Source: a virus
Strand: one strand, 5' to 3'
DNA: 64,000 nt
Virus record (IMG/VR): IMGVR_UViG_3300030117_006323
Span: 1-64,000 of that record
Shown piece after piece: positions 1 through 18,378 of this stretch. Each line of letters starts with the position of its first letter. Position 1 is the first letter of the stretch. The notes beneath the pieces are model-generated. The model had not been told where the DNA came from. It saw only the letters and a list, made by a program, of their open reading frames with translations, and searched no databases. A program made the position numbers and the translations under genes.

Positions 1-2
1 GT

Positions 3-119
3 TACATCGAGTTCTTGGAAGACAAGTTTGGCAACCATTGGGATGAGTTTGTGCAAGCCGGACTATCGGTACGGGAATCATCTGACGAAGAAGCAAAGCA
101 TTGGGAGGCGAGTGAATGA
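3..119 (+). CDS. 5'-truncated hypothetical protein (…WDEFVQAGLSVRESSDEEAKHWEASE)
   Basis: Frame is open from the window edge to TGA 117-119, which overlaps the next ATG (ATGA); GGAGG SD at 104-108. Confidence 0.7.
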   Translation, partial: YIEFLEDKFGNHWDEFVQAGLSVRESSDEEAKHWEASE

Positions 120-622
120 ACATATTCGTATTAGACAAGCACCCGTCAGCAGCAGCACGTATGCACTGTGACAAGCACGTTCCCAAGATGTGTGTAGAAG
201 CAGCACAGATGATGGCATCAGCCCTGCGCCGACACGGTGCTACTGATGACATTATGCCACTCACCAAAGCAGGTAAGCCCTACAAGGGAGGCTATGCTCA
301 CCATCCATGTACAGTATGGGCTGGTGACAGTCGCGCCAATTTCATGTGGCTCGCTCTACACGCAATCTCTTTGTGTAGCGAATACAGGAAACGCTTCGGT
401 AAGGTCCATGCTTGCTACGAACCTATCGTGTACATGGAAAAGCACTACCTTCTCATAGATGACTCACCTTTGACACCATTCGCGCAGGCCATGCCTGACG
501 AGTATCGTGATGATAATGTGGTCAAGGCATACCGAGCCTACTATCATTCCAAGACATTCGCCAAGTGGGAGAAGGGAACACCTGCTCCTCTTTGGTGGCA
601 AGGCGTGGAGGTGACGGCGTGA
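116..622 (+). CDS. pyrimidine-dimer DNA glycosylase-like protein (DenV/Pyr_excise family)
   Basis: MNIFVLD…AA…CDKHVPKM.VE.AQM and HHPCTVW…N..WL, PF.QAMP.EY…V.AYR.YY are typical of this phage family. Confidence 0.85.
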   Translation: MNIFVLDKHPSAAARMHCDKHVPKMCVEAAQMMASALRRHGATDDIMPLTKAGKPYKGGYAHHPCTVWAGDSRANFMWLALHAISLCSEYRKRFGKVHACYEPIVYMEKHYLLIDDSPLTPFAQAMPDEYRDDNVVKAYRAYYHSKTFAKWEKGTPAPLWWQGVEVTA

Positions 623-729
623 AGGAATTTCCTTTGTCACTACTGTTGTGCAAGGTGGGTAAGTGTGATGGTAAGAATGCTATTGCACCCGAACTCCCCT
701 GTCCTCATTGCGTGGAGGTGACGGCGTGA
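619..729 (+). CDS. 36-aa Cys-rich microprotein MKEFPLSLLLCKVGKCDGKNAIAPELPCPHCVEVTA
   Basis: Manual translation from the GTG in repeat 1 to the TGA in repeat 2; Cx4C…CxxC. Confidence 0.7.
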   Translation: MKEFPLSLLLCKVGKCDGKNAIAPELPCPHCVEVTA

Positions 730-857
730 AGTGTGAATTGTGCGACGAGCCAATGATGATGACTAAGTTAATTCGTGGCCCTAATCCAGAAAGGGGTTTG
801 GACAAAGGTGAGTGGGCCTGTTCATACAAATGTGAATGCGTGGAGGTGACGGCGTGA
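726..857 (+). CDS. 43-aa Zn-finger microprotein MKCELCDEPMMMTKLIRGPNPERGLDKGEWACSYKCECVEVTA
   Basis: Manual translation from repeat to repeat; CxxC…CxC. Confidence 0.75.
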   Translation: MKCELCDEPMMMTKLIRGPNPERGLDKGEWACSYKCECVEVTA

Positions 858-1009
858 ACGCATATTCAAAGTGCGAGTGTTTCGGTGATGTGGGAACTCG
901 TATATTCCTCAAGGGATTCGATGAATACAGTGGTCAGTTTGTCCACATAACCCCTTCCTTTTGTCCTTACTGTGGTGAGAGCACGACGTATGGGGAGGTG
1001 AAGTCGTGA
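854..1009 (+). CDS. 51-aa Zn-finger microprotein MNAYSKCECFGDVG…FCPYCGESTTYGEVKS
   Basis: Manual translation; CxC…CPYCG; GTGA coupling at both ends. Confidence 0.75.
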   Translation: MNAYSKCECFGDVGTRIFLKGFDEYSGQFVHITPSFCPYCGESTTYGEVKS

Positions 1010-1194
1010 GAAATACAAATAACAGTTGTGAACATGATTTTGAGTTATCATACTACGATGACGTTGATGGCGCATACGTGGTATTTGAGTGTAAGAACTG
1101 CGGTATGGTTGTATCATGTGATGTAGAAAGCCCCTATGAAAATGCAAAGATGGACCGTGGTATTGTGGAAGAAGGCGTGGAGGTGACGGCGTGA
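1006..1194 (+). CDS. 62-aa Zn-ribbon microprotein
   Basis: CEH…FECKNCG; ends in the VEVTA repeat. Confidence 0.75.
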   Translation: MRNTNNSCEHDFELSYYDDVDGAYVVFECKNCGMVVSCDVESPYENAKMDRGIVEEGVEVTA

Positions 1195-1448
1195 AAGCGG
1201 CTACAAGGAGGCAACGCCTGAACAAAGCGTTGACTGAAATGCCTACGGGAATTGAATTCACGGCAGCGGATGTACAGGAAATAATGGCGAAACAATACAA
1301 GCGTGGGGAGTTGTCCACGCGAGCAATCGGATTTCTTCTAGCGAAAACGGATGGTGTGTCAAGAATGCGAAAACGCTCTTGGATAAAATCCGATTCCTTT
1401 AAGAACCAACAACAAAAAAAGAAAATGAACCGAGGTGAAAATATATGA
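1191..1448 (+). CDS. small basic protein, possibly winged-helix DNA-binding
   Basis: Starts at the GTG in the last repeat; FTAADVQE…LSTRAIGFLL…W resembles wHTH (weak). Confidence 0.5.
   Translation: MKAATRRQRLNKALTEMPTGIEFTAADVQEIMAKQYKRGELSTRAIGFLLAKTDGVSRMRKRSWIKSDSFKNQQQKKKMNRGENI
1396..1414 (+). promoter_or_regulatory. viral promoter motif CCTTTAAGAACCAACAACA (copy 1, before DUF932 gene)
   Basis: TATA-like TTTAAG with a conserved downstream tail; five copies, all shortly upstream of + strand gene starts. Confidence 0.7.
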
Positions 1449-3079
1449 CCGACGAAAGTAATGTGATTGTGATTGGCAAGGTTGATGATGCAAGTGGTTC
1501 ACGCTTGCTCATTCAATATGAAGCCCAATCGGGGACGCGGCACGAATGGGTGCCTAGAGATGCAGTAAAGAGACAAGAGCCTTTGTCCGATGGAAGGACG
1601 GCTTTTGTTCTGGGGTATGCCGAGACAGAAGCAGGTGAATACGAGCCAGATAGGCAATTCGTAGGGGCCGCTATGCCTATGGTGACCGAAGAGAACGACA
1701 TCATTGTCGTATCTGCGCTTGAGAACGACGAAGAATTGCCAGAATTGGCATTCGATGATAGCCGCCCAGTGTTTACACAGGGAGCGGACCAAGAAATACC
1801 GACTATCATTGCCATTGGTGAAGATGGCGAGGAGTTACCAGAGGATGTATGGGGCGGTGCACTTCTCACAGGAGGGAGGTTTGAGACTGTATGTGATTGG
1901 GATTTCGTGCCCACAGTCCTACCTGCCTATGTACCCGTGCAAGAAGAGTCCAGTGAGACTATGATGCCACGTATGCAACGTGTCAACGACAAGAAAGGAG
2001 AGGCAAATGTATTCCTCGCTTTCAACCCTAACTACCGTAGCGCACGTGAGCCTGCTGGGGCCCACTTGGGTACCTTCAGTAGTCGATACTTCGCTCTTGA
2101 TTACCCCACCGTGGCCCGGCCTCTTCTACAAAGAGCGGCCCAAAATGGTTGGCAAGCGAGTGTTCTTGCTTATGACCGAGGTAAGAAGATGCGAATTGAT
2201 TGTGATGTCATGGGTGCTATGCACGCAGGTGGCGGCGGTGCTGGGAGCCATGCTGATTTGATGCGTAAAGGTTGGACTAGTATGGCTCAATCTGACAGCG
2301 GATGGCTCATGGAAGAGACAATGAAGGATTTGCAGGAGCAAGTACATCGAGTCTGGCGCTATGGATTCAGTATCCACAATAGCCTTGACGGCAATGGCTC
2401 ATTCCGTGTCCAAGCGGTAGCCCGTCGAAATGCTTGCACGAATGCAGGTGTGATTGGTGGGCAACGGACACTCATGAGCATGAGACACACGAAGGGTGTG
2501 ATGGAACCCATTGATTGGGATGATTTCGCTGACACAATTGACGCTGTTATCACTGATGCTCAAAGAGGGTTGGGTCACGTTGAGGCACTCAAGTATATCC
2601 CTCTTGAGGAGCACATGTTTGAACGATTACTTACACTGTGCGAGCGCGCAGGTCTTGTGAGTTGGCCTCGTCAGAGTAAGGATGGGACTTTGCAGGGTAG
2701 CCACATGTGGCATCTATTCGGCCATGGTTGGACGACTCCTTCAGAGTCTTGGGTTCGCGTTGAGGGTGACTCAAAGAAGACACTCTACCATGCTTACCAA
2801 GTGCTGACTGGTGCAATCACTCACAAGCCTGAGTGGCGGACTAAGGGGCGCGTCCTCAAGGGACACACAGTCAATCTAGATACCTTTGACCGACGCTTGG
2901 CTAAGGTGGATGCACTACTCACTGGTTTGGGTGTGGATACCATGCAGAAGTATTCCTCCACTTTAGGACATCCTATCGGATTGACTGATTGGGATGGGCT
3001 ACGTGAATTCGGTGTGCCTGCTCTAGATGATGTGCCTACGGCCACAGAAGTCCTTCGTGTTCTCAATAACGAGGAGTGA
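1445..3079 (+). CDS. DUF932/DUF945-family protein with acidic N-terminal extension
   Basis: HNSLDGNGSF…RRNACTNAG…RHTKG signature; GAGGTG SD. Confidence 0.75.
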   Translation: MTDESNVIVIGKVDDASGSRLLIQYEAQSGTRHEWVPRDAVKRQEPLSDGRTAFVLGYAETEAGEYEPDRQFVGAAMPMVTEENDIIVVSALENDEELPELAFDDSRPVFTQGADQEIPTIIAIGEDGEELPEDVWGGALLTGGRFETVCDWDFVPTVLPAYVPVQEESSETMMPRMQRVNDKKGEANVFLAFNPNYRSAREPAGAHLGTFSSRYFALDYPTVARPLLQRAAQNGWQASVLAYDRGKKMRIDCDVMGAMHAGGGGAGSHADLMRKGWTSMAQSDSGWLMEETMKDLQEQVHRVWRYGFSIHNSLDGNGSFRVQAVARRNACTNAGVIGGQRTLMSMRHTKGVMEPIDWDDFADTIDAVITDAQRGLGHVEALKYIPLEEHMFERLLTLCERAGLVSWPRQSKDGTLQGSHMWHLFGHGWTTPSESWVRVEGDSKKTLYHAYQVLTGAITHKPEWRTKGRVLKGHTVNLDTFDRRLAKVDALLTGLGVDTMQKYSSTLGHPIGLTDWDGLREFGVPALDDVPTATEVLRVLNNEE

Positions 3080-3435
3080 TTATTCTGGAAGAGGAGGAGT
3101 ACACCGTCTATATTGACGGGCTAAGGGTCACCCCTGACAGCATCACCAGTGATGGTATGTGGATGGGGGAAGATGGCATGCAATGTGACATCAGGGAAAT
3201 GAAATTTAACGTACCTGAAGGCATCAAGGGTGGCCCTTACTCCCCACAATCTGTCATGGCGATTCTACCGATAAAGGAGGCGTACCAAGTGTGCCCTGAA
3301 TGCAAGTCTAACGTGTCGGATGATGGCATTTTGCTGATGATGGAAGTGTTCCACGTGTACCCCGCTTCTTGTTGCGATAGGATGGTGTGGTTACGTAATG
3401 GCGGTAGCCAAAATTGGGCACAGGAGTTGAGTTAG
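3076..3435 (+). CDS. hypothetical Zn-binding protein
   Basis: GTGA-coupled start; CPEC…SCC. Confidence 0.65.
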   Translation: MIILEEEEYTVYIDGLRVTPDSITSDGMWMGEDGMQCDIREMKFNVPEGIKGGPYSPQSVMAILPIKEAYQVCPECKSNVSDDGILLMMEVFHVYPASCCDRMVWLRNGGSQNWAQELS

Positions 3436-6315
3436 ATGGGCGCAAGAAGAAGACCAAAACCGAGGAAAAAGAGGGCCGGTAAGAATAGGAAGTATGCCAA
3501 ATTCAAAGCCATAGAGAGAGCGTTTTACGATACTTTAATCAGGGGTGATTTTGTACCCGTGAGTCCTCTTATACTTGTCCATAATGAGCATCACACTTCT
3601 GAGGAATCGCGAGATTTTGCCCTAAAGTTATGGGCTCCCTTCATTAGATGGACGGAGCAAGAACATGTTCCCGGGGAGTTGTTATTTGGGGCTTGGTATT
3701 TCACTATGTGCCCCGACTTTAATCGCCGGGAAGAGGACTACTTTGCAAATTACATGAAGTACGCAGCGGAAATAGATGAAGCAGGTGAAAAACTTGTTTC
3801 CTTCGTTGAAGATTTTGGGGTTAAAGGCTTAATTTCTATGTGTCGAAGAGTCTTGGATAGGTTTCAAAAAGCGGCCCCTCTAAATGAGTCATTGGTTGCA
3901 TTCGCTTGGACAAGACACGAGGCAGGTCTAATCATCCCTGAATACTTGCTGAACCCAGCAACTGTCAATAGGATTGAAAGTGAGCCTGAATTATGGAGGT
4001 TGGGTAAAAATATTGAACGCTTGACAGTAGATAATTGTGCGTCTGTTTTGCAGAGTCGGTTATTGGAAAGCGCCCAAAACGTCATTGATTACGCAGCGGA
4101 AAATCACCTAGGTATAATTGTAAAATATTACAAACAAAAATTGGCAGATGCAGATGGTATAGATGATTGGGAAAGTGTTAGTCTGAAAGATTACAAAGAC
4201 CCGCCTCGTTTTTATCGAATAATTCCTGATGTAGATATAATCAAAGCAATAGTTGAATCAGGTGTCACACTTAATCCAATAAAAATACACGCTTATGCTA
4301 GCATTTTGACGCAAGGTGAATTCTTGATGGGTAATTTACATCTCCCGGAATATCAATACAATTGGGACGCAATGGGCTTTGATACAGAGGAAATTGAATC
4401 CTTCATAAAAGAAGGAAAGATAAATGAAGTAATGGGTTTGTTATGGGACAAGCACCAAGAGCAAGGTATGCAAGGTCAAATAAATACATCAGTGATGTAC
4501 CCATCGTCATGTAGGTTATCTGTTCCTGCATTTGAATCATTTAAGACATCAGCATTTAAGTTACACATGAGTGATGGAGGTGGTTCCTATAGAGAGAGGT
4601 CACTCGTTGAGGGGGATGTTTTAGACAGATTTTCATATTTCCCCACTCCTGAACAGAGTTCTCAATTCGCTGATTTCGATGAACAAGACATGCGTTGGGC
4701 TCATGCTAATCTCGCTTTACTCGGGCAATCTTATTGGCCTTCTCTCCGTGACTCTATTTTCCGTTTCACCATCGACCAATGCGAGAGAGATATAGACGGG
4801 TGGGATGATTATACTGCTAGAGGGCGCCAGCGAGACATCAACGAAATTATCTTATATTCACTTTATGGGAAGCCCAAGCATCTTTACTTACCGATGCTGA
4901 AGCAGTATTTGAAAGATGCTCAGGCAGTCCGCGAGAACTTATGGAAGAACGGAAAGGGTCCTGATTCCGACACGATACGAAATTATTACAAATCCCTTGA
5001 ACCTAAAGATTGGTTATTTTCAGACGAAATTCATTATTGGTCCACATTCATGAAAGAGGCAGTATATCCAACCATTCCTCAGTCTCTAGTGCCGTTTTTA
5101 TCTGGTAATTTGATACATCGTTGGCCTGATGTGAAGCAAATGTGGTCAGAGGAATACCGTAATCAATATCACATTCCTGAAGGAGGTATTGTACTGCATG
5201 ATAGGTATATAGAAGGAGACCAAATAGAAAGAGGCTATGAGTTAAGTTGGCGTGAAGCCTTTTGTCGTTGTCTCACAGAACAAGCCATGGCGTTCAACCC
5301 TGACATCCACACTAAATTGCGGGAAAATGCCGACATAATGAATGCAGATGGCATGGAGATAGAATACCTCCCTCTATTGGAACGTGGTATAATAACTCAT
5401 CACCTAGGTGAAGCAGAAGACCTGTATCTTTCTTCTCATGCCCCGCACCTAATGGCTTTGTTTGACAGTTTAGATGATGCTGTCAACTTCAAACTTGATT
5501 ATGACACACAAAAAATCATCTTACTCCAAGGGGAAAAGAGGAGCAAAATCAATCCCTTTTTCTTACAATTACCCTTCCCTTCAATCTTCATAGAGACAAG
5601 AATGCCGTTAGTGAACGGTATGCTTCTAGAGGGCATGTTGGTCAGAGAATTGGTCATTCCAGAAGGTTCGTCGGGGGACCCGCATTCAAGTATGTACTTC
5701 AATATCATGACAGGCGAGATTGAGTACATGAGAGATAGTGATTGGCACAGCCTTCAGAATACTATGCCACAACTTGTCCCATTCTGTAGAAGTCAATATC
5801 TTGGTGATAGAATTTGGCTCATGGTAGGTGTCGGGACAAACACGTATGGCGAAAGGGAGATACTGAAATACAGTTGGTGCCCAGACATAGGCGATGGTCT
5901 GCATCAAAGATTCCCAAGAAAAAGAGGCAATGAACGAGCAAGAGTGGCGAGACAGATGTTAGATTTACTCACAAGCATGGTGCTTTTCATTCAAATGTCA
6001 GGCGTGACTTACGTTGAGAGGAAACCCAGAGAGATTGACCAAGAAAAGCGGAAAAAGAGAGGCTTGCGTCCATTATCTTCATCCAATGTAATCGTCCTAA
6101 CGGGGGAAATGAAGCGATACGCTAATGACCTAAAGGCCGCTGCCTCTGGTGGGGGCAAACTGAGACTCCGGCACTCTGTTATCAAACATCCACGTTTGCT
6201 TATGAGTGATAGATACAAGAAATCAGGACTTCAAGGTACGACTATATTTGTGGATGCACATGAAAGAGGTGGGAGTCGAATTAAAGCACAGAAGGATTAT
6301 GAGGTGAAGAAATGA
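3436..6315 (+). CDS. large hypothetical protein (959 aa), basic N-terminus, C-terminal RH.V..H.R…V..H.RG motif
   Basis: Long ORF abutting both neighbours; AT-richer than its flanks by eye. Confidence 0.75.
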   Translation: MGARRRPKPRKKRAGKNRKYAKFKAIERAFYDTLIRGDFVPVSPLILVHNEHHTSEESRDFALKLWAPFIRWTEQEHVPGELLFGAWYFTMCPDFNRREEDYFANYMKYAAEIDEAGEKLVSFVEDFGVKGLISMCRRVLDRFQKAAPLNESLVAFAWTRHEAGLIIPEYLLNPATVNRIESEPELWRLGKNIERLTVDNCASVLQSRLLESAQNVIDYAAENHLGIIVKYYKQKLADADGIDDWESVSLKDYKDPPRFYRIIPDVDIIKAIVESGVTLNPIKIHAYASILTQGEFLMGNLHLPEYQYNWDAMGFDTEEIESFIKEGKINEVMGLLWDKHQEQGMQGQINTSVMYPSSCRLSVPAFESFKTSAFKLHMSDGGGSYRERSLVEGDVLDRFSYFPTPEQSSQFADFDEQDMRWAHANLALLGQSYWPSLRDSIFRFTIDQCERDIDGWDDYTARGRQRDINEIILYSLYGKPKHLYLPMLKQYLKDAQAVRENLWKNGKGPDSDTIRNYYKSLEPKDWLFSDEIHYWSTFMKEAVYPTIPQSLVPFLSGNLIHRWPDVKQMWSEEYRNQYHIPEGGIVLHDRYIEGDQIERGYELSWREAFCRCLTEQAMAFNPDIHTKLRENADIMNADGMEIEYLPLLERGIITHHLGEAEDLYLSSHAPHLMALFDSLDDAVNFKLDYDTQKIILLQGEKRSKINPFFLQLPFPSIFIETRMPLVNGMLLEGMLVRELVIPEGSSGDPHSSMYFNIMTGEIEYMRDSDWHSLQNTMPQLVPFCRSQYLGDRIWLMVGVGTNTYGEREILKYSWCPDIGDGLHQRFPRKRGNERARVARQMLDLLTSMVLFIQMSGVTYVERKPREIDQEKRKKRGLRPLSSSNVIVLTGEMKRYANDLKAAASGGGKLRLRHSVIKHPRLLMSDRYKKSGLQGTTIFVDAHERGGSRIKAQKDYEVKK

Positions 6316-7040
6316 ACGAGGAATGGAAACCGAGCAAAGAAGATATTGAATGGACAGTAGGTCATTTGGAAACAATCCAAATAGGCGGCGTTTGGGCCCC
6401 CGGAGGGGCAGGGACAGAATACGAGAGAACAGGAGAGAGAGAACTCTCCTTGATGCGTATTGTACAACATCCAGACGCAGGTGAAATGCACAGCAGGATT
6501 TTGCGAACTTTGAGTGAAACTGACTGGATAGTAGTGGAAGAGAATGCCGAAATGGTTGTACCTCCACTGAATCCACAAGAAGCGCAATTTCAAGAGTTGC
6601 TAAGGCAACAAGAAATAGCAGCGGGCTGGATTTGTCAGGGCGAAGGTTGCGAGCAAAGACTAGTCAACATGCCACTGGAAGATGCACAATGGGTATCACA
6701 TGGCATGCAAGCGGCACTAGATTTGGAGGGTAAAGCGATTGAACAGGAGCGTTGGAGCGTTCTTGTTGTGTGTGATGCTTGTGGGACAGAGTTACATCTA
6801 GACCCGCAGAATTATGGCTTGTTAGGAGGGGATGAACTCTTCTTCCGCTGGGTCATGCCGAATGGGGTATATACTGTGCTCACAAGAGAACAAGTTGTAG
6901 AGATGGTGGACGGTGGTGTGGCCGATGATGTGTGCCTCCCTCTTGGCTCATCTTTGTACGAAAATAGCGGCATACCCGTCCCACCACACATGAGAGGGAC
7001 ATATTGCATGTTTACACCCACACATGGTGAGGAAGAGTGA
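6312..7040 (+). CDS. hypothetical protein with Cx4C…CxxC
   Basis: ATGA-coupled, GAGGTG SD. Confidence 0.7.
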   Translation: MNEEWKPSKEDIEWTVGHLETIQIGGVWAPGGAGTEYERTGERELSLMRIVQHPDAGEMHSRILRTLSETDWIVVEENAEMVVPPLNPQEAQFQELLRQQEIAAGWICQGEGCEQRLVNMPLEDAQWVSHGMQAALDLEGKAIEQERWSVLVVCDACGTELHLDPQNYGLLGGDELFFRWVMPNGVYTVLTREQVVEMVDGGVADDVCLPLGSSLYENSGIPVPPHMRGTYCMFTPTHGEEE

Positions 7041-7480
7041 TGACCAAAAGACATCATGGTGCCATGGGGGGCCGCCGCTCTAGAGGCTCTGGGAAGAAAC
7101 TACATTGGGCCTCAATAAAACAGGCAGTTGCAAATGGATTGGAAGATTGGGAAGGTTCGCCGTTTTTCACTTTAGATGGGTTTATTGACTATATTCACAA
7201 GGATTATTGGCGCTTGGCCCGTAGTTCAGGCCATTATCGTGCTCGCGGTACATTTTGCATCAGGCGTCGTTTACGCAGCCAAGTGGCCATAATGTTGAAA
7301 CAGCATGGGATAGTTAGGAAGCAGTACAACAGAATCCAACCTAGAAGAGACAGATTTGGATATTTAATCGAAGCACCTTTTCGCTATTGGTCTTTACCGG
7401 GCCATGAATTGCCCAAGTCGGAGATACACAATACTTCGCGTTTATTGAATTTGAATCAATTGTGGGGTGAGGAAGAATGA
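7037..7480 (+). CDS. hypothetical basic protein
   Basis: Coupled ORF with junction repeats at both ends. Confidence 0.6.
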   Translation: MMTKRHHGAMGGRRSRGSGKKLHWASIKQAVANGLEDWEGSPFFTLDGFIDYIHKDYWRLARSSGHYRARGTFCIRRRLRSQVAIMLKQHGIVRKQYNRIQPRRDRFGYLIEAPFRYWSLPGHELPKSEIHNTSRLLNLNQLWGEEE

Positions 7481-7704
7481 GCAAGCAACCGAGATGTGGA
7501 AAAATCATCTATCCGAATGCGCACATTGCCCATTTAGAAGCGAAAACCAAAAAGAAGTATCAAGGTGTATCACTGAACTATTATCATTGCGAATTATGTG
7601 AAGGGTATCATTTGACAAAAATGAGACCTAAAGAGCAAGAGGCATTTCGGCTATTATCCCAACTAGCATGGGAACGTAGAACCAAGAGGAGTGAGGAAGA
7701 ATGA
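7477..7704 (+). CDS. small Zn-finger protein (CGK..Y…Y.CxxC.GYHLT)
   Basis: Motif common in small phage proteins; ATGA coupling. Confidence 0.7.
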   Translation: MSKQPRCGKIIYPNAHIAHLEAKTKKKYQGVSLNYYHCELCEGYHLTKMRPKEQEAFRLLSQLAWERRTKRSEEE

Positions 7705-8024
7705 GTGGGCACTCTCAAAGGATGAGAAGAAAGGCAGAGACTTATCGTGGCTTCAGAGAAAAAGCCCGAGAGATGGGAGAAAGTATGGGGCGGGCTCTTG
7801 GTCTCTCCCCAGATATTATCGAAGGGGCTCTTCAATTGTATGAAGAGAATTGGCAAGATGCTCCGCGCACACCTCAAGGGACCATGGTTGATTGCTTGTA
7901 CGTTACAGCCAATCGTTACGGTGCGACTACGACAACAAGACAATTTTATCAGATGCTGAAAACAAAATACGGTGTAGGTACAGAGCCTCGCCCGAGTTGG
8001 TTACAGTGCGTCTTAGAGAACTAG
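7701..8024 (+). CDS. stand-alone TFIIB/TFB cyclin-repeat protein (mini-TFB)
   Basis: ALGLSPDIIEGALQLYE…RTPQGTMVDCLYVTA…G…T aligns by eye to the repeats of the TFB at 24304 (LGL…A…GR.P.GIAAA.LY.A…G…T). Confidence 0.6.
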   Translation: MSGHSQRMRRKAETYRGFREKAREMGESMGRALGLSPDIIEGALQLYEENWQDAPRTPQGTMVDCLYVTANRYGATTTTRQFYQMLKTKYGVGTEPRPSWLQCVLEN

Positions 8025-16885: not shown

Positions 16886-17119
16886 ATGATGAAAGATAAA
16901 GACGATATTGTTCAGGACGTTAGCCCATGGGGTGGTACGTTCAAGGCAAAAGAACCTAACCCATTGACCTGTAATTCGTGGGAGAAGGCATTCTGCTTAG
17001 AGCAGAGATTAGATACAGACCCAGAGAGCATGCTTACCGCAGACCCAAACATATTGCAATGCCCACTCTGTGGATTCACGATACCACTTGAACCTGTAGA
17101 AGAGGAGGCGAGTGAATGA
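16886..17119 (+). CDS. hypothetical protein with CPLCG
   Basis: AGGTGA SD before ATG 16886; coupled to the next gene. Confidence 0.6.
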   Translation: MMKDKDDIVQDVSPWGGTFKAKEPNPLTCNSWEKAFCLEQRLDTDPESMLTADPNILQCPLCGFTIPLEPVEEEASE

Positions 17120-17337: not shown

Positions 17338-17450
17338 TGAAGTGCGAAGTTGAATCTTGTCGCGCTCAGAGACATCCGGGCAAGCGTAGATGCCTAAGTT
17401 GCTTTGTCATGGGAAGGAGGGGTGATGTTGGACACAGCCAAACAAAGTAA
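17337..17450 (+). CDS. 37-aa Zn-finger microprotein MKCEVESCRAQRHPGKRRCLSCFVMGRRGDVGHSQTK
   Basis: Manual translation; TGATG coupling; Cx4C…CxxC. Confidence 0.6.
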   Translation: MKCEVESCRAQRHPGKRRCLSCFVMGRRGDVGHSQTK

Positions 17451-18378
17451 AATCTCTACATACGCATGGTCCCCGGATGATGACTCCGGTATGATTCTCC
17501 GTGTCACCAAGTCCGCTTTGGGTACTTTCAATTGGTGTAAGAAACAGTATGAGTTTGAGAAAATGATGGGCCTGCGGGGTCTAACTCAGCCTCATCATAT
17601 CCGTGGAGTTAATTTACACAACGCACTAGAAGAATTCTATGAGCGCATTGACACCGATGTAGTGCTTGAAGCATTAGATGCCGGGCTAAAGCAGAAGGCC
17701 TTGGCTCTCGTCTATGCTGCGTTCCCACCTCCTGAAGAATTACATCGACACGAAGAGGATGAAGCATCTGGAACCACTGTGTTACAGTATGGTGAAGGAG
17801 ATGGTATCAGGACACTAGCAGAGTGGGAACTGGAACGAATAGAAATCACCAGAGGTGAAGAGTTCATGCCGGTCGGGAACGAACAGTGGGTCGATGTAGT
17901 CACTGAAATCGAAGTGGATGGTCAAGTAGTACCTATCGAAATTCGTGGGTTCATTGACCGCATCTTCCGCGATGAGGCTGGTGGTCTTGCGTTGATGGAA
18001 TTAAAGAGCGGTAAGTGGAAGGGCAGCAAGGTGTCCAGCATGCGACAAGAATTAGCCGTGTACAAATTCCTGCTCGATGAGAAACGCAAAACACCCGAAG
18101 GGAAATTGTGGTTAGCGGAACGTGGTTTGGATGCACCAGTCACGCATTGGGGCTGGAGGTTCCCTATGGGTGACATCAATGGAGGCGATGGACCGCACTG
18201 GGACTATGAGCCTGTGAAGAAGCAGAGCATGAATGCAATGATGAAGAGGTTGAAAGACCTCATTCGTGCTCACTTGAAACAAGAGTTCCCCCCTGTGGCT
18301 GATGCATTCAAGTGTTCATTCTGTGACCAAATGTCTTACTGCCCAGCGTGGGCCCATGAAATGGAGGAAGGATTATGA
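17425..18378 (+). CDS. Cas4-like / RecB-type PD-(D/E)XK exonuclease with 4-Cys Fe-S staple
   Basis: S…WC..QY, G..LH, RGFIDRI, ELKSGK, CSFCDQMSYC. Confidence 0.85.
   Translation: MLDTAKQSKISTYAWSPDDDSGMILRVTKSALGTFNWCKKQYEFEKMMGLRGLTQPHHIRGVNLHNALEEFYERIDTDVVLEALDAGLKQKALALVYAAFPPPEELHRHEEDEASGTTVLQYGEGDGIRTLAEWELERIEITRGEEFMPVGNEQWVDVVTEIEVDGQVVPIEIRGFIDRIFRDEAGGLALMELKSGKWKGSKVSSMRQELAVYKFLLDEKRKTPEGKLWLAERGLDAPVTHWGWRFPMGDINGGDGPHWDYEPVKKQSMNAMMKRLKDLIRAHLKQEFPPVADAFKCSFCDQMSYCPAWAHEMEEGL

Follow-up and report, generated by a model that had tools for sequence, protein, structure and literature searches.

Why should a virus carry one and the same 20 nucleotides (nt) at the boundaries between successive small genes that are unrelated to each other? 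The question is raised by the beginning of the virus record IMGVR_UViG_3300030117_006323 (91,170 bp, 85% complete), bases 1–64,000 of which were analyzed as a single stretch and are referred to below as the window. Here, the gene of a Pyr_excise glycosylase is followed by an array of short open reading frames (ORFs), termed cassettes, and a 20-nt sequence, GCGTGGAGGTGACGGCGTGA, forms the junction from one gene to the next. The comparison of this array with related loci suggests that the junction is probably a translational-coupling element that serves, at the same time, as a seam for short-homology recombination.

Anatomy of the Junction Array

The exact 20-mer was found four times on the + strand of the window and not once on the other strand, and no match was obtained in 100 dinucleotide-preserving shuffles; a further copy was degenerate (Table 1). 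In the whole record, the exact 20-mer was confined to these four sites. The actual identity is 21 nt, with an A after TGA in all four exact copies. The junction is composed of GGAGGTGA at positions 5–12, a Shine–Dalgarno (SD) sequence that we take to be the full complement of the conserved 3′ end of 16S ribosomal RNA (rRNA), the spacer CGGC, and a GTG start codon overlapping the TGA stop codon of the preceding gene (GTGA). Its in-frame reading is xGC-GTG-GAG-GTG-ACG-GCG-TGA, which corresponds to (G/C/S)VEVTA-stop. No part of the junction extends beyond the coding sequence or the stop/start overlap, and the 4-nt overlaps leave zero intergenic space. The spacing from copy to copy was 107, 128, 152, and 185 nt, and each interval was exactly one ORF of 36–62 amino acids (aa), extending from the GTG of one GTGA to the TGA of the next copy.

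The number of copies and the one-ORF intervals agreed with the first-pass annotation of this DNA, which had also stated that all of the proteins end in VEVTA and that the cassettes are Zn-finger microgenes. The first of these statements was correct for the glycosylase, whose C-terminus ..WWQGVEVTA is encoded through junction copy 1, and for cassettes 1, 2, and 4, but not for cassette 3, which ends in GEVKS because its terminal junction is the degenerate copy. The second was correct for the window, where paired Cys/His motifs were present in all four cassettes, but could not be extended to a rule for such arrays, as two or more CxxC-like motifs were found in only about one-third of the cassettes of related loci.

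Distribution of the Junction among Related Loci

The exact 20-mer was detected in 48 IMG/VR contigs (49 stretches) and in at least 120 contigs from marine metagenomes. With five mismatches allowed, most of the loci were arrays, with up to 11 copies (L026); 2–9 copies were present in 94 of the 120 metagenome loci. The junction spacing in relatives was roughly 90–700 nt, mostly 100–300 nt. Of about 50 viral loci, 35 had the Pyr_excise glycosylase in front of the array, which makes this gene the usual 5′ anchor. The IMG/VR set contained 104 unique junction-to-junction intervals, each being one ORF, with a median product length of 53 aa and a Cys content of 5.9%. The pooled ratio of nonsynonymous to synonymous polymorphism (pN/pS) was 0.17 over 14 cassette families, and therefore the cassettes are real genes under purifying selection.

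Larger genes were also adjacent to the junction. Junctions flanked a DNA methyltransferase on both sides, and in different contigs a junction was the start of a second methyltransferase, of a Dam-like methylase, and of a clamp loader. Genes of C5-type or Dam-like methyltransferases and of the RFC clamp loader were observed directly behind the VEVTA junction in L041/L022 (2620–3246), L044 (2710), and L035/L052; therefore, the large-scale placement of the array with respect to the replication genes varies between viruses.

In cellular genomes, the matches were single chance ones (high-GC actinobacteria and other unrelated bacteria), apart from two array-bearing contigs of marine metagenome-assembled genomes (MAGs). 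These were L069 (a 9.3-kb contig of a MAG labelled Maricaulis) with five exact copies and L065 (a MAG labelled Opitutales) with two, at array spacing; both are probably of viral origin and mis-binned into bacterial MAGs. An origin of the motif in host genomes was rejected on these grounds. A scan with a degenerate 16-mer was dominated, among the matches listed, by single chance matches in unrelated phages. The specificity lies in multi-copy arrays only. Tandem duplication of one ancestral microgene was likewise rejected in view of the many unrelated cassette families; it is also contradicted by the junction following the glycosylase and a methyltransferase and preceding the second methyltransferase and the clamp-loader gene.

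Conservation of the Junction at the Nucleotide Level

For the evaluation of sequence constraint, junctions were chosen by the SD core and the overlap alone (GGAGGTGA + N4 + RTGA, where R is A or G), which avoids circularity and gave 150 unique contexts. In 532 kb of related loci, this pattern was found 166 times on the coding strand and 0 times on the opposite strand, while other spacings (2–7 nt) gave one copy per strand. The spacer was CGGC in 120 of the 150 contexts (80%), and the upstream 4 nt were GCGT in 102 (68%). Positions 1–4 and 13–16 presumably cannot pair with the 16S 3′ end, given the established anti-SD sequence. The identity thus extends beyond what an SD sequence needs, as the first-pass annotation had maintained.

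Its alternative proposal was that VEVTA is a shared C-terminal tag. Such a tag would be a degron or a sorting or interaction signal, the DNA identity being secondary. The ending is indeed common to unrelated proteins, including the glycosylase, the DNA methyltransferase, and dozens of microproteins. However, the synonymous positions did not vary freely, and the dominant codons were rarer or even the rarest choices for their residues in this genome (p from 1e-8 to 1e-110): ACG made up 125 of 136 Thr codons at the junctions (10% genome-wide), GGC 59 of 61 Gly codons (22%), TGC 27 of 31 Cys codons (37%), and AGC 19 of 20 Ser codons (16%). The residue before VEVTA changes (G, C, or S), whereas the last two bases of its codon stay GC. 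Moreover, peptide variants are tolerated (VEVKA, VEVTE, EVTA, and MEVTA), whereas the SD core is essentially invariant, with at most three departures per position among 158 copies. Position 17 was G or A in 157 of the 158 copies, T in one, and C in none, which indicates the demand for a start codon and not the wobble of Ala. The junction is conserved as a DNA/RNA element, not as a peptide, and a function of VEVTA as a tag is very improbable.

Conservation beyond rRNA pairing could alternatively mean that the bases outside the SD sequence are a regulatory site, recognized either by an RNA- or DNA-binding factor of the virus or the host or by an endoribonuclease, which would set how early or how strongly this class of genes is expressed; this would be compatible with coupling and exchange. 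Such a site would be comparable to the Start-Associated Sequences of Cluster K mycobacteriophages discussed below, or to the early SD sequences cut by RegB of phage T4. Consistent with such a site, the perfect core is nearly reserved for the junction (166 of the 179 occurrences of GGAGGTGA in the related loci lay within the pattern), and the motif is absent from cellular genomes except for the chance singles and the two probable viral contigs mentioned above. Meanwhile, no candidate factor was identified, the extra identity can be accounted for by concerted evolution without one, and no hairpin covariation was detected. The corresponding structure, a hairpin with the SD sequence in its loop (positions 1–4 pairing with 12–16), was tried and rejected: positions 12 and 15 were near-invariant (157 of 158 copies), their partners 4 and 2 varied, and there were no compensatory changes in this non-palindromic 20-nt sequence, which occurs in one orientation. 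A regulatory site is improbable as the explanation of the repeat.

Exchange of Cassettes at the Junction

Exchange was analyzed in a set of about 170 loci (IMG/VR and metagenome) with 545 cassette ORFs belonging to 207 families. Each of the 40 families with three or more occurrences had two or more different downstream neighbours (in 38 families, three or more), and 18 family pairs were found in both orders. Gene order is not fixed: array content and order vary between contigs behind the common anchor gene. The breakpoints fall on the repeats. The first-pass annotation had named two refuting outcomes, namely, a fixed gene order with breakpoints away from the repeats and free synonymous variation; neither was observed. 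Of the 360 ends of high-scoring segment pairs (HSPs) near the arrays, 169 coincided with the final base of the 20-mer, and about 70% lay within 0 to +6 of it (about 4% by chance for an interval of this size).

Individual pairs of loci gave the same picture. In L014 and L038, the flanks were 98% identical, and four and two unrelated cassettes, respectively, were present between two junctions. Segments 684–855 of L012 and 7077–7248 of L026 were 97.7% identical exactly from junction start to junction end, although over 12–15 kb these contigs otherwise share only the glycosylase (67.5%) and a 110-nt cassette stretch (83.6%). Single cassettes were 93–100% identical in genomes that otherwise aligned poorly or not at all. 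Five near-identical pairs of loci had identical arrays in separate assemblies.

Close relatives of the 85-aa gene that ends the window array and of the DUF932 protein behind it were sought among viral contigs and not found; therefore, the window was compared cassette-wise and flank-wise, without a near-identical backbone. In the comparison of its glycosylase with the 120 metagenome loci, nearly all HSPs (about 60) stopped at 614–635, mostly at 622, and none continued into cassette 1. A homologue of cassette 1 was third in the L295 array (93% DNA identity, 35 of 36 aa), and another was present in L254 behind a different junction. Cassette 3 had homologues with 89–93% DNA identity that occupied the first array position in L014, the second in L281, and the third in L199, all ending in VEVTA. 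Cassette 4 (window 1024–1194) corresponded to L008 5007–5177 (94.7%) and L213 63–233 (93.6%), both HSPs ending on the last base of the junction; the glycosylase identity to L008 was 80.7%. No homologue of cassette 2 was found among the related loci compared. In the contigs sharing cassettes 1, 3, and 4 with the window (89–95%), the glycosylase was 66–81% identical, and the cassettes occupied other array positions. In 51 of 85 pairs, the similarity of the shared cassette exceeded that of the adjacent glycosylase by more than 5 points, with the caveat that the glycosylase itself appears to have been exchanged. Its gene was mosaic in L014 (568–1488) relative to L038 (6205–7086), with 82.5% identity between the 98% flanks, and in L012 it begins at a degenerate junction, which suggests cassette-like behaviour of this gene too.

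The linkage of junction polymorphisms to neighbouring genes was computed without the glycosylase family, which has its own variant ending. Positions 1–4 were linked to the upstream cassette (10% difference versus 34% background), whereas positions 13–17 were not (23% versus 24%), and therefore crossovers are placed in or just after the invariant core. Assembly chimerism cannot produce this adjacency-level pattern, because one read spans the 20-nt junction and parts of both neighbours.

Proposed Mechanism and Alternatives

The junction would have two roles. As RNA, the 8-nt SD sequence in the last codons of a gene, the 4-nt spacer, and the RTGA overlap would let the ribosome re-initiate on the next microgene, for which neither intergenic space nor a separate promoter would be needed. 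As DNA, identical junctions in the same orientation would form a seam for deleting, inserting, or swapping whole one-gene cassettes, by short-homology recombination of the host or by copy-choice during replication of co-infecting genomes; the repeat may thus cause the exchange and not just mark it. All of the recombinants would remain in frame and translationally coupled. Repeated exchange would in turn homogenise the junction by concerted evolution, and we propose that the identity beyond the SD sequence is due to this homogenisation.

Several points weigh against this explanation. Recombination was deduced from the comparison of assembled sequences, and metagenome assemblies may be strain chimeras at longer distances. 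Twenty bases are short for classical homologous recombination, and the Rad51/RadA and AAA_24 profiles gave no match in the 85%-complete record. Random illegitimate recombination followed by selection for intact, coupled genes would also give breakpoints at gene ends. It would account for the mosaicism if the junction were a translation signal only, i.e., an optimal re-initiation element that is not causal in the exchange. In favour of this reading, a two-gene indel between the window and L008 breaks at a different SD junction (window 114–118), other junctions of the same genome embed an SD sequence and a 4-nt overlap without the 20-nt repeat, and recombinases were not found in the profile searches of the record. 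However, such a signal leaves unexplained why positions without rRNA pairing are 68–80% fixed via rare codons and why so many HSP ends fall on one exact base; in addition, the polymorphisms of the left and right parts of the junction segregate with different neighbours, as crossovers inside it would give. A purely translational role is therefore unlikely, and a coupling element that is also a recombination seam is preferred. It is decidedly unlikely that a dedicated virus-encoded mechanism (programmed copy-choice or a nuclease/annealase) acts on the 20-mer, which would make the array the archaeal-virus counterpart of integrons.

Two other types of junction were observed in the window. The second class, GAGGAAGA(A/G)TGA, often preceded by GT, is located at 7029–7040, 7469–7480, and 7693–7704; the three genes in a row that it terminates all end in ..EEE-stop, the overlap being ATGA or GTGA. 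In 48 related loci, 17 further copies of this class were found, on the coding strand only, and many of the relatives' cassettes end in EEE or EE-like sequences. The third type, GAGGCGAGTGAATGA, is located at 100–119 and 17100–17119. Its copy at 116 is the breakpoint of a two-gene insertion of approximately 860 bp that L008 has and the window lacks, and gene-level indels are thus not confined to the 20-mer.

Comparison with Known Systems

The first-pass annotation had described the array as an integron-like plug-in system. The junction breakpoints and the shuffled cassettes agree with this description, and the mechanism does not. As in integrons, the cassettes are single ORFs in the same orientation, with one site per cassette and no room for promoters between them, and their highly variable content stands behind a conserved anchor gene. 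In contrast to integrons, the array has no IntI-type recombinase, folded palindromic attC, or attI; the site is 20 nt long, non-palindromic, and within the coding sequence, and short homology is the simplest account of the exchange. Tyrosine (PF00589) and serine (PF00239) recombinases were not found in the 85%-complete record, which is not proof of their absence, although these profiles matched 14 of 14 and 12 of 14 control genomes, respectively. A site-specific system in which a dedicated recombinase inserts and excises cassettes at the junction is extremely improbable. The two enzymes suggested in the first-pass annotation as mediators fared differently: a Sak4-like ATPase was not supported (no Pfam AAA_24 match at E ≤ 0.001), while the Cas4-like exonuclease is present (Table 1) and nothing ties it to the array.

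Shuffling of small genes mediated by a motif is known from the promoter-early stem-loops (PeSLs) of T4-type phages (Arbiol et al. 2010, PMC2839356; Comeau et al. 2014, PMC4122927). In both cases, a short expression signal in one orientation lies between small, mostly ORFan genes of a hyperplastic region, the breakpoints of indels and replacements lie in the motif, and the motif keeps the swapped genes expressed. However, a PeSL is an intergenic promoter with a stem-loop terminator acting in bacterial transcription, whereas the junction is a 20-nt, intragenic, translational element of an archaeal virus, which has no stem-loop and fixes the last five residues of each protein. For PeSLs, the formation of mini-circles through exchange between adjacent motifs has also been shown.

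The Start-Associated Sequences (SAS) of Cluster K mycobacteriophages, for which a regulatory binding role has been proposed (Pope et al. 2011, PMC3203893), are similar in being asymmetric repeats in one orientation, with the SD core 3–7 nt before the start and conservation beyond rRNA pairing, that precede the starts of non-structural genes of different families. They differ in having another, 13-bp sequence, mostly ATG starts, a scattered distribution over the right genome arm, and another virus group. Moreover, SAS have not been reported as a recombination seam, and a stop/start overlap and a fixed C-terminal peptide are outside their definition. The array is not an integron, nor is it a member of the PeSL or SAS families.

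Strict termination–reinitiation coupling at 4-nt overlaps has been demonstrated in Haloferax volcanii and E. coli (Huber et al. 2019, PMC6728339). The junction shares with those gene pairs the 4-nt RTGA overlap and the SD sequence inside the upstream gene, and by analogy its genes may be coupled in the same way; however, the sequences are gene-specific there, whereas here one 20-mer is present at up to 11 successive junctions and in many genomes.

No description of such junctions in magroviruses was found in the literature searched. Motif-mediated modular shuffling is of a known kind; what is new is the translational junction in archaeal viruses, by which the PeSL principle, based on transcription in T4-type phages, would be carried over to signals of translation. 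A gene-exchange site is thereby made visible and countable in globally abundant uncultured archaeal viruses, and a single 20-nt element would account for the way in which unrelated microgenes, numbering in the hundreds (207 families from the set of about 170 loci), share one expression context. Genes of 30–100 aa that gene callers overlook can be annotated with their true starts and stops from the junction. The array is also a natural locus for tracking and haplotyping these viruses in ocean metagenomes, and its cassettes are a candidate pool of small proteins of Zn-ribbon-like type, with a possible action on the host.

Features of the Window and the Source Virus

The coordinates of the array genes, of the junction copies, and of two genes outside the array are given in Table 1.

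Table 1. Genes and junction copies of the array and other genes of the window.
Feature	Position	Strand	Characteristics
Pyr_excise (T4 endoV-like) pyrimidine-dimer glycosylase	116–622	+	PF03013, E 5.9e-07; PHROG 624, E 4e-57
Cassette 1	619–729	+	36 aa; C..C and CPHC motifs; VEVTA end
Cassette 2	726–857	+	43 aa; CxxC ... CxxxCxC; VEVTA end
Cassette 3	854–1009	+	51 aa; CEC ... CPYC; GEVKS end
Cassette 4	1006–1194	+	62 aa; CEH ... CKNC; VEVTA end
Terminal array gene	1191–1448	+	85 aa, basic; VEVTA absent; weak PHROG match only
Junction copy 1	603–622	+	Exact; end of the glycosylase gene
Junction copy 2	710–729	+	Exact
Junction copy 3	838–857	+	Exact
Degenerate junction copy	990–1009	+	5 mismatches; GGAGGTGA, 4-nt spacer, and GTGA retained
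Junction copy 4	1175–1194	+	Exact
Cas4-like PD-(D/E)XK nuclease	17404–18378	+	In the + strand block; Pfam
ORF of 5681 aa	28931–45976	−	Apparently the giant structural protein known from Poseidoniales viruses

Cassettes 1–4 gave nothing above threshold against Pfam and PHROGs; a sub-threshold match of zf-Mss51 to cassette 4 scored 17.2 bits, with a cut-off of 27 bits. For the cassettes, the ESM Atlas gave unnamed clusters only. The 85-aa gene overlaps the start of the DUF932 gene by ATGA and is provided with another SD sequence (GAGGTGA + 6 nt). A TTTAAG-containing stretch was observed at 1396–1445, in the 3′ end of the 85-aa gene and about 40 nt before the DUF932 start; if it is a promoter, the array would be the tail of the upstream transcription unit.

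According to Pfam, the + strand block of the window encodes an RFC-like AAA clamp loader, PolB, PDDEXK_1, Cpn60_TCP1 (a group II chaperonin, E 1.7e-127), and TFIIB/TFB. Magroviruses and Poseidoniales viruses are described (PMC11706807) as having genomes near 100 kb that encode PolB, a thermosome, and a giant jelly-roll protein. The record matches this gene set in its 91-kb size, PolB, clamp loader, PD-(D/E)XK nuclease, group II chaperonin, and giant ORF, and its gene content therefore points to a magrovirus-like archaeal tailed virus of an uncultured host. Among isolates, the closest PolB sequences were those of haloarchaeal tailed viruses (25% identity), and bases 1–8000 of the window gave zero blastn matches to phage isolates. 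The chaperonin had many relatives, which were carried by marine and Tara contigs of 60–110 kb. Outside the window, at 66470–66634 of the record, a 12-bp tandem repeat with the unit CCGGGCATCATA was observed in five or six copies, with one further copy lying about 100 bp upstream; no other k-mer of the genome is repeated as often.

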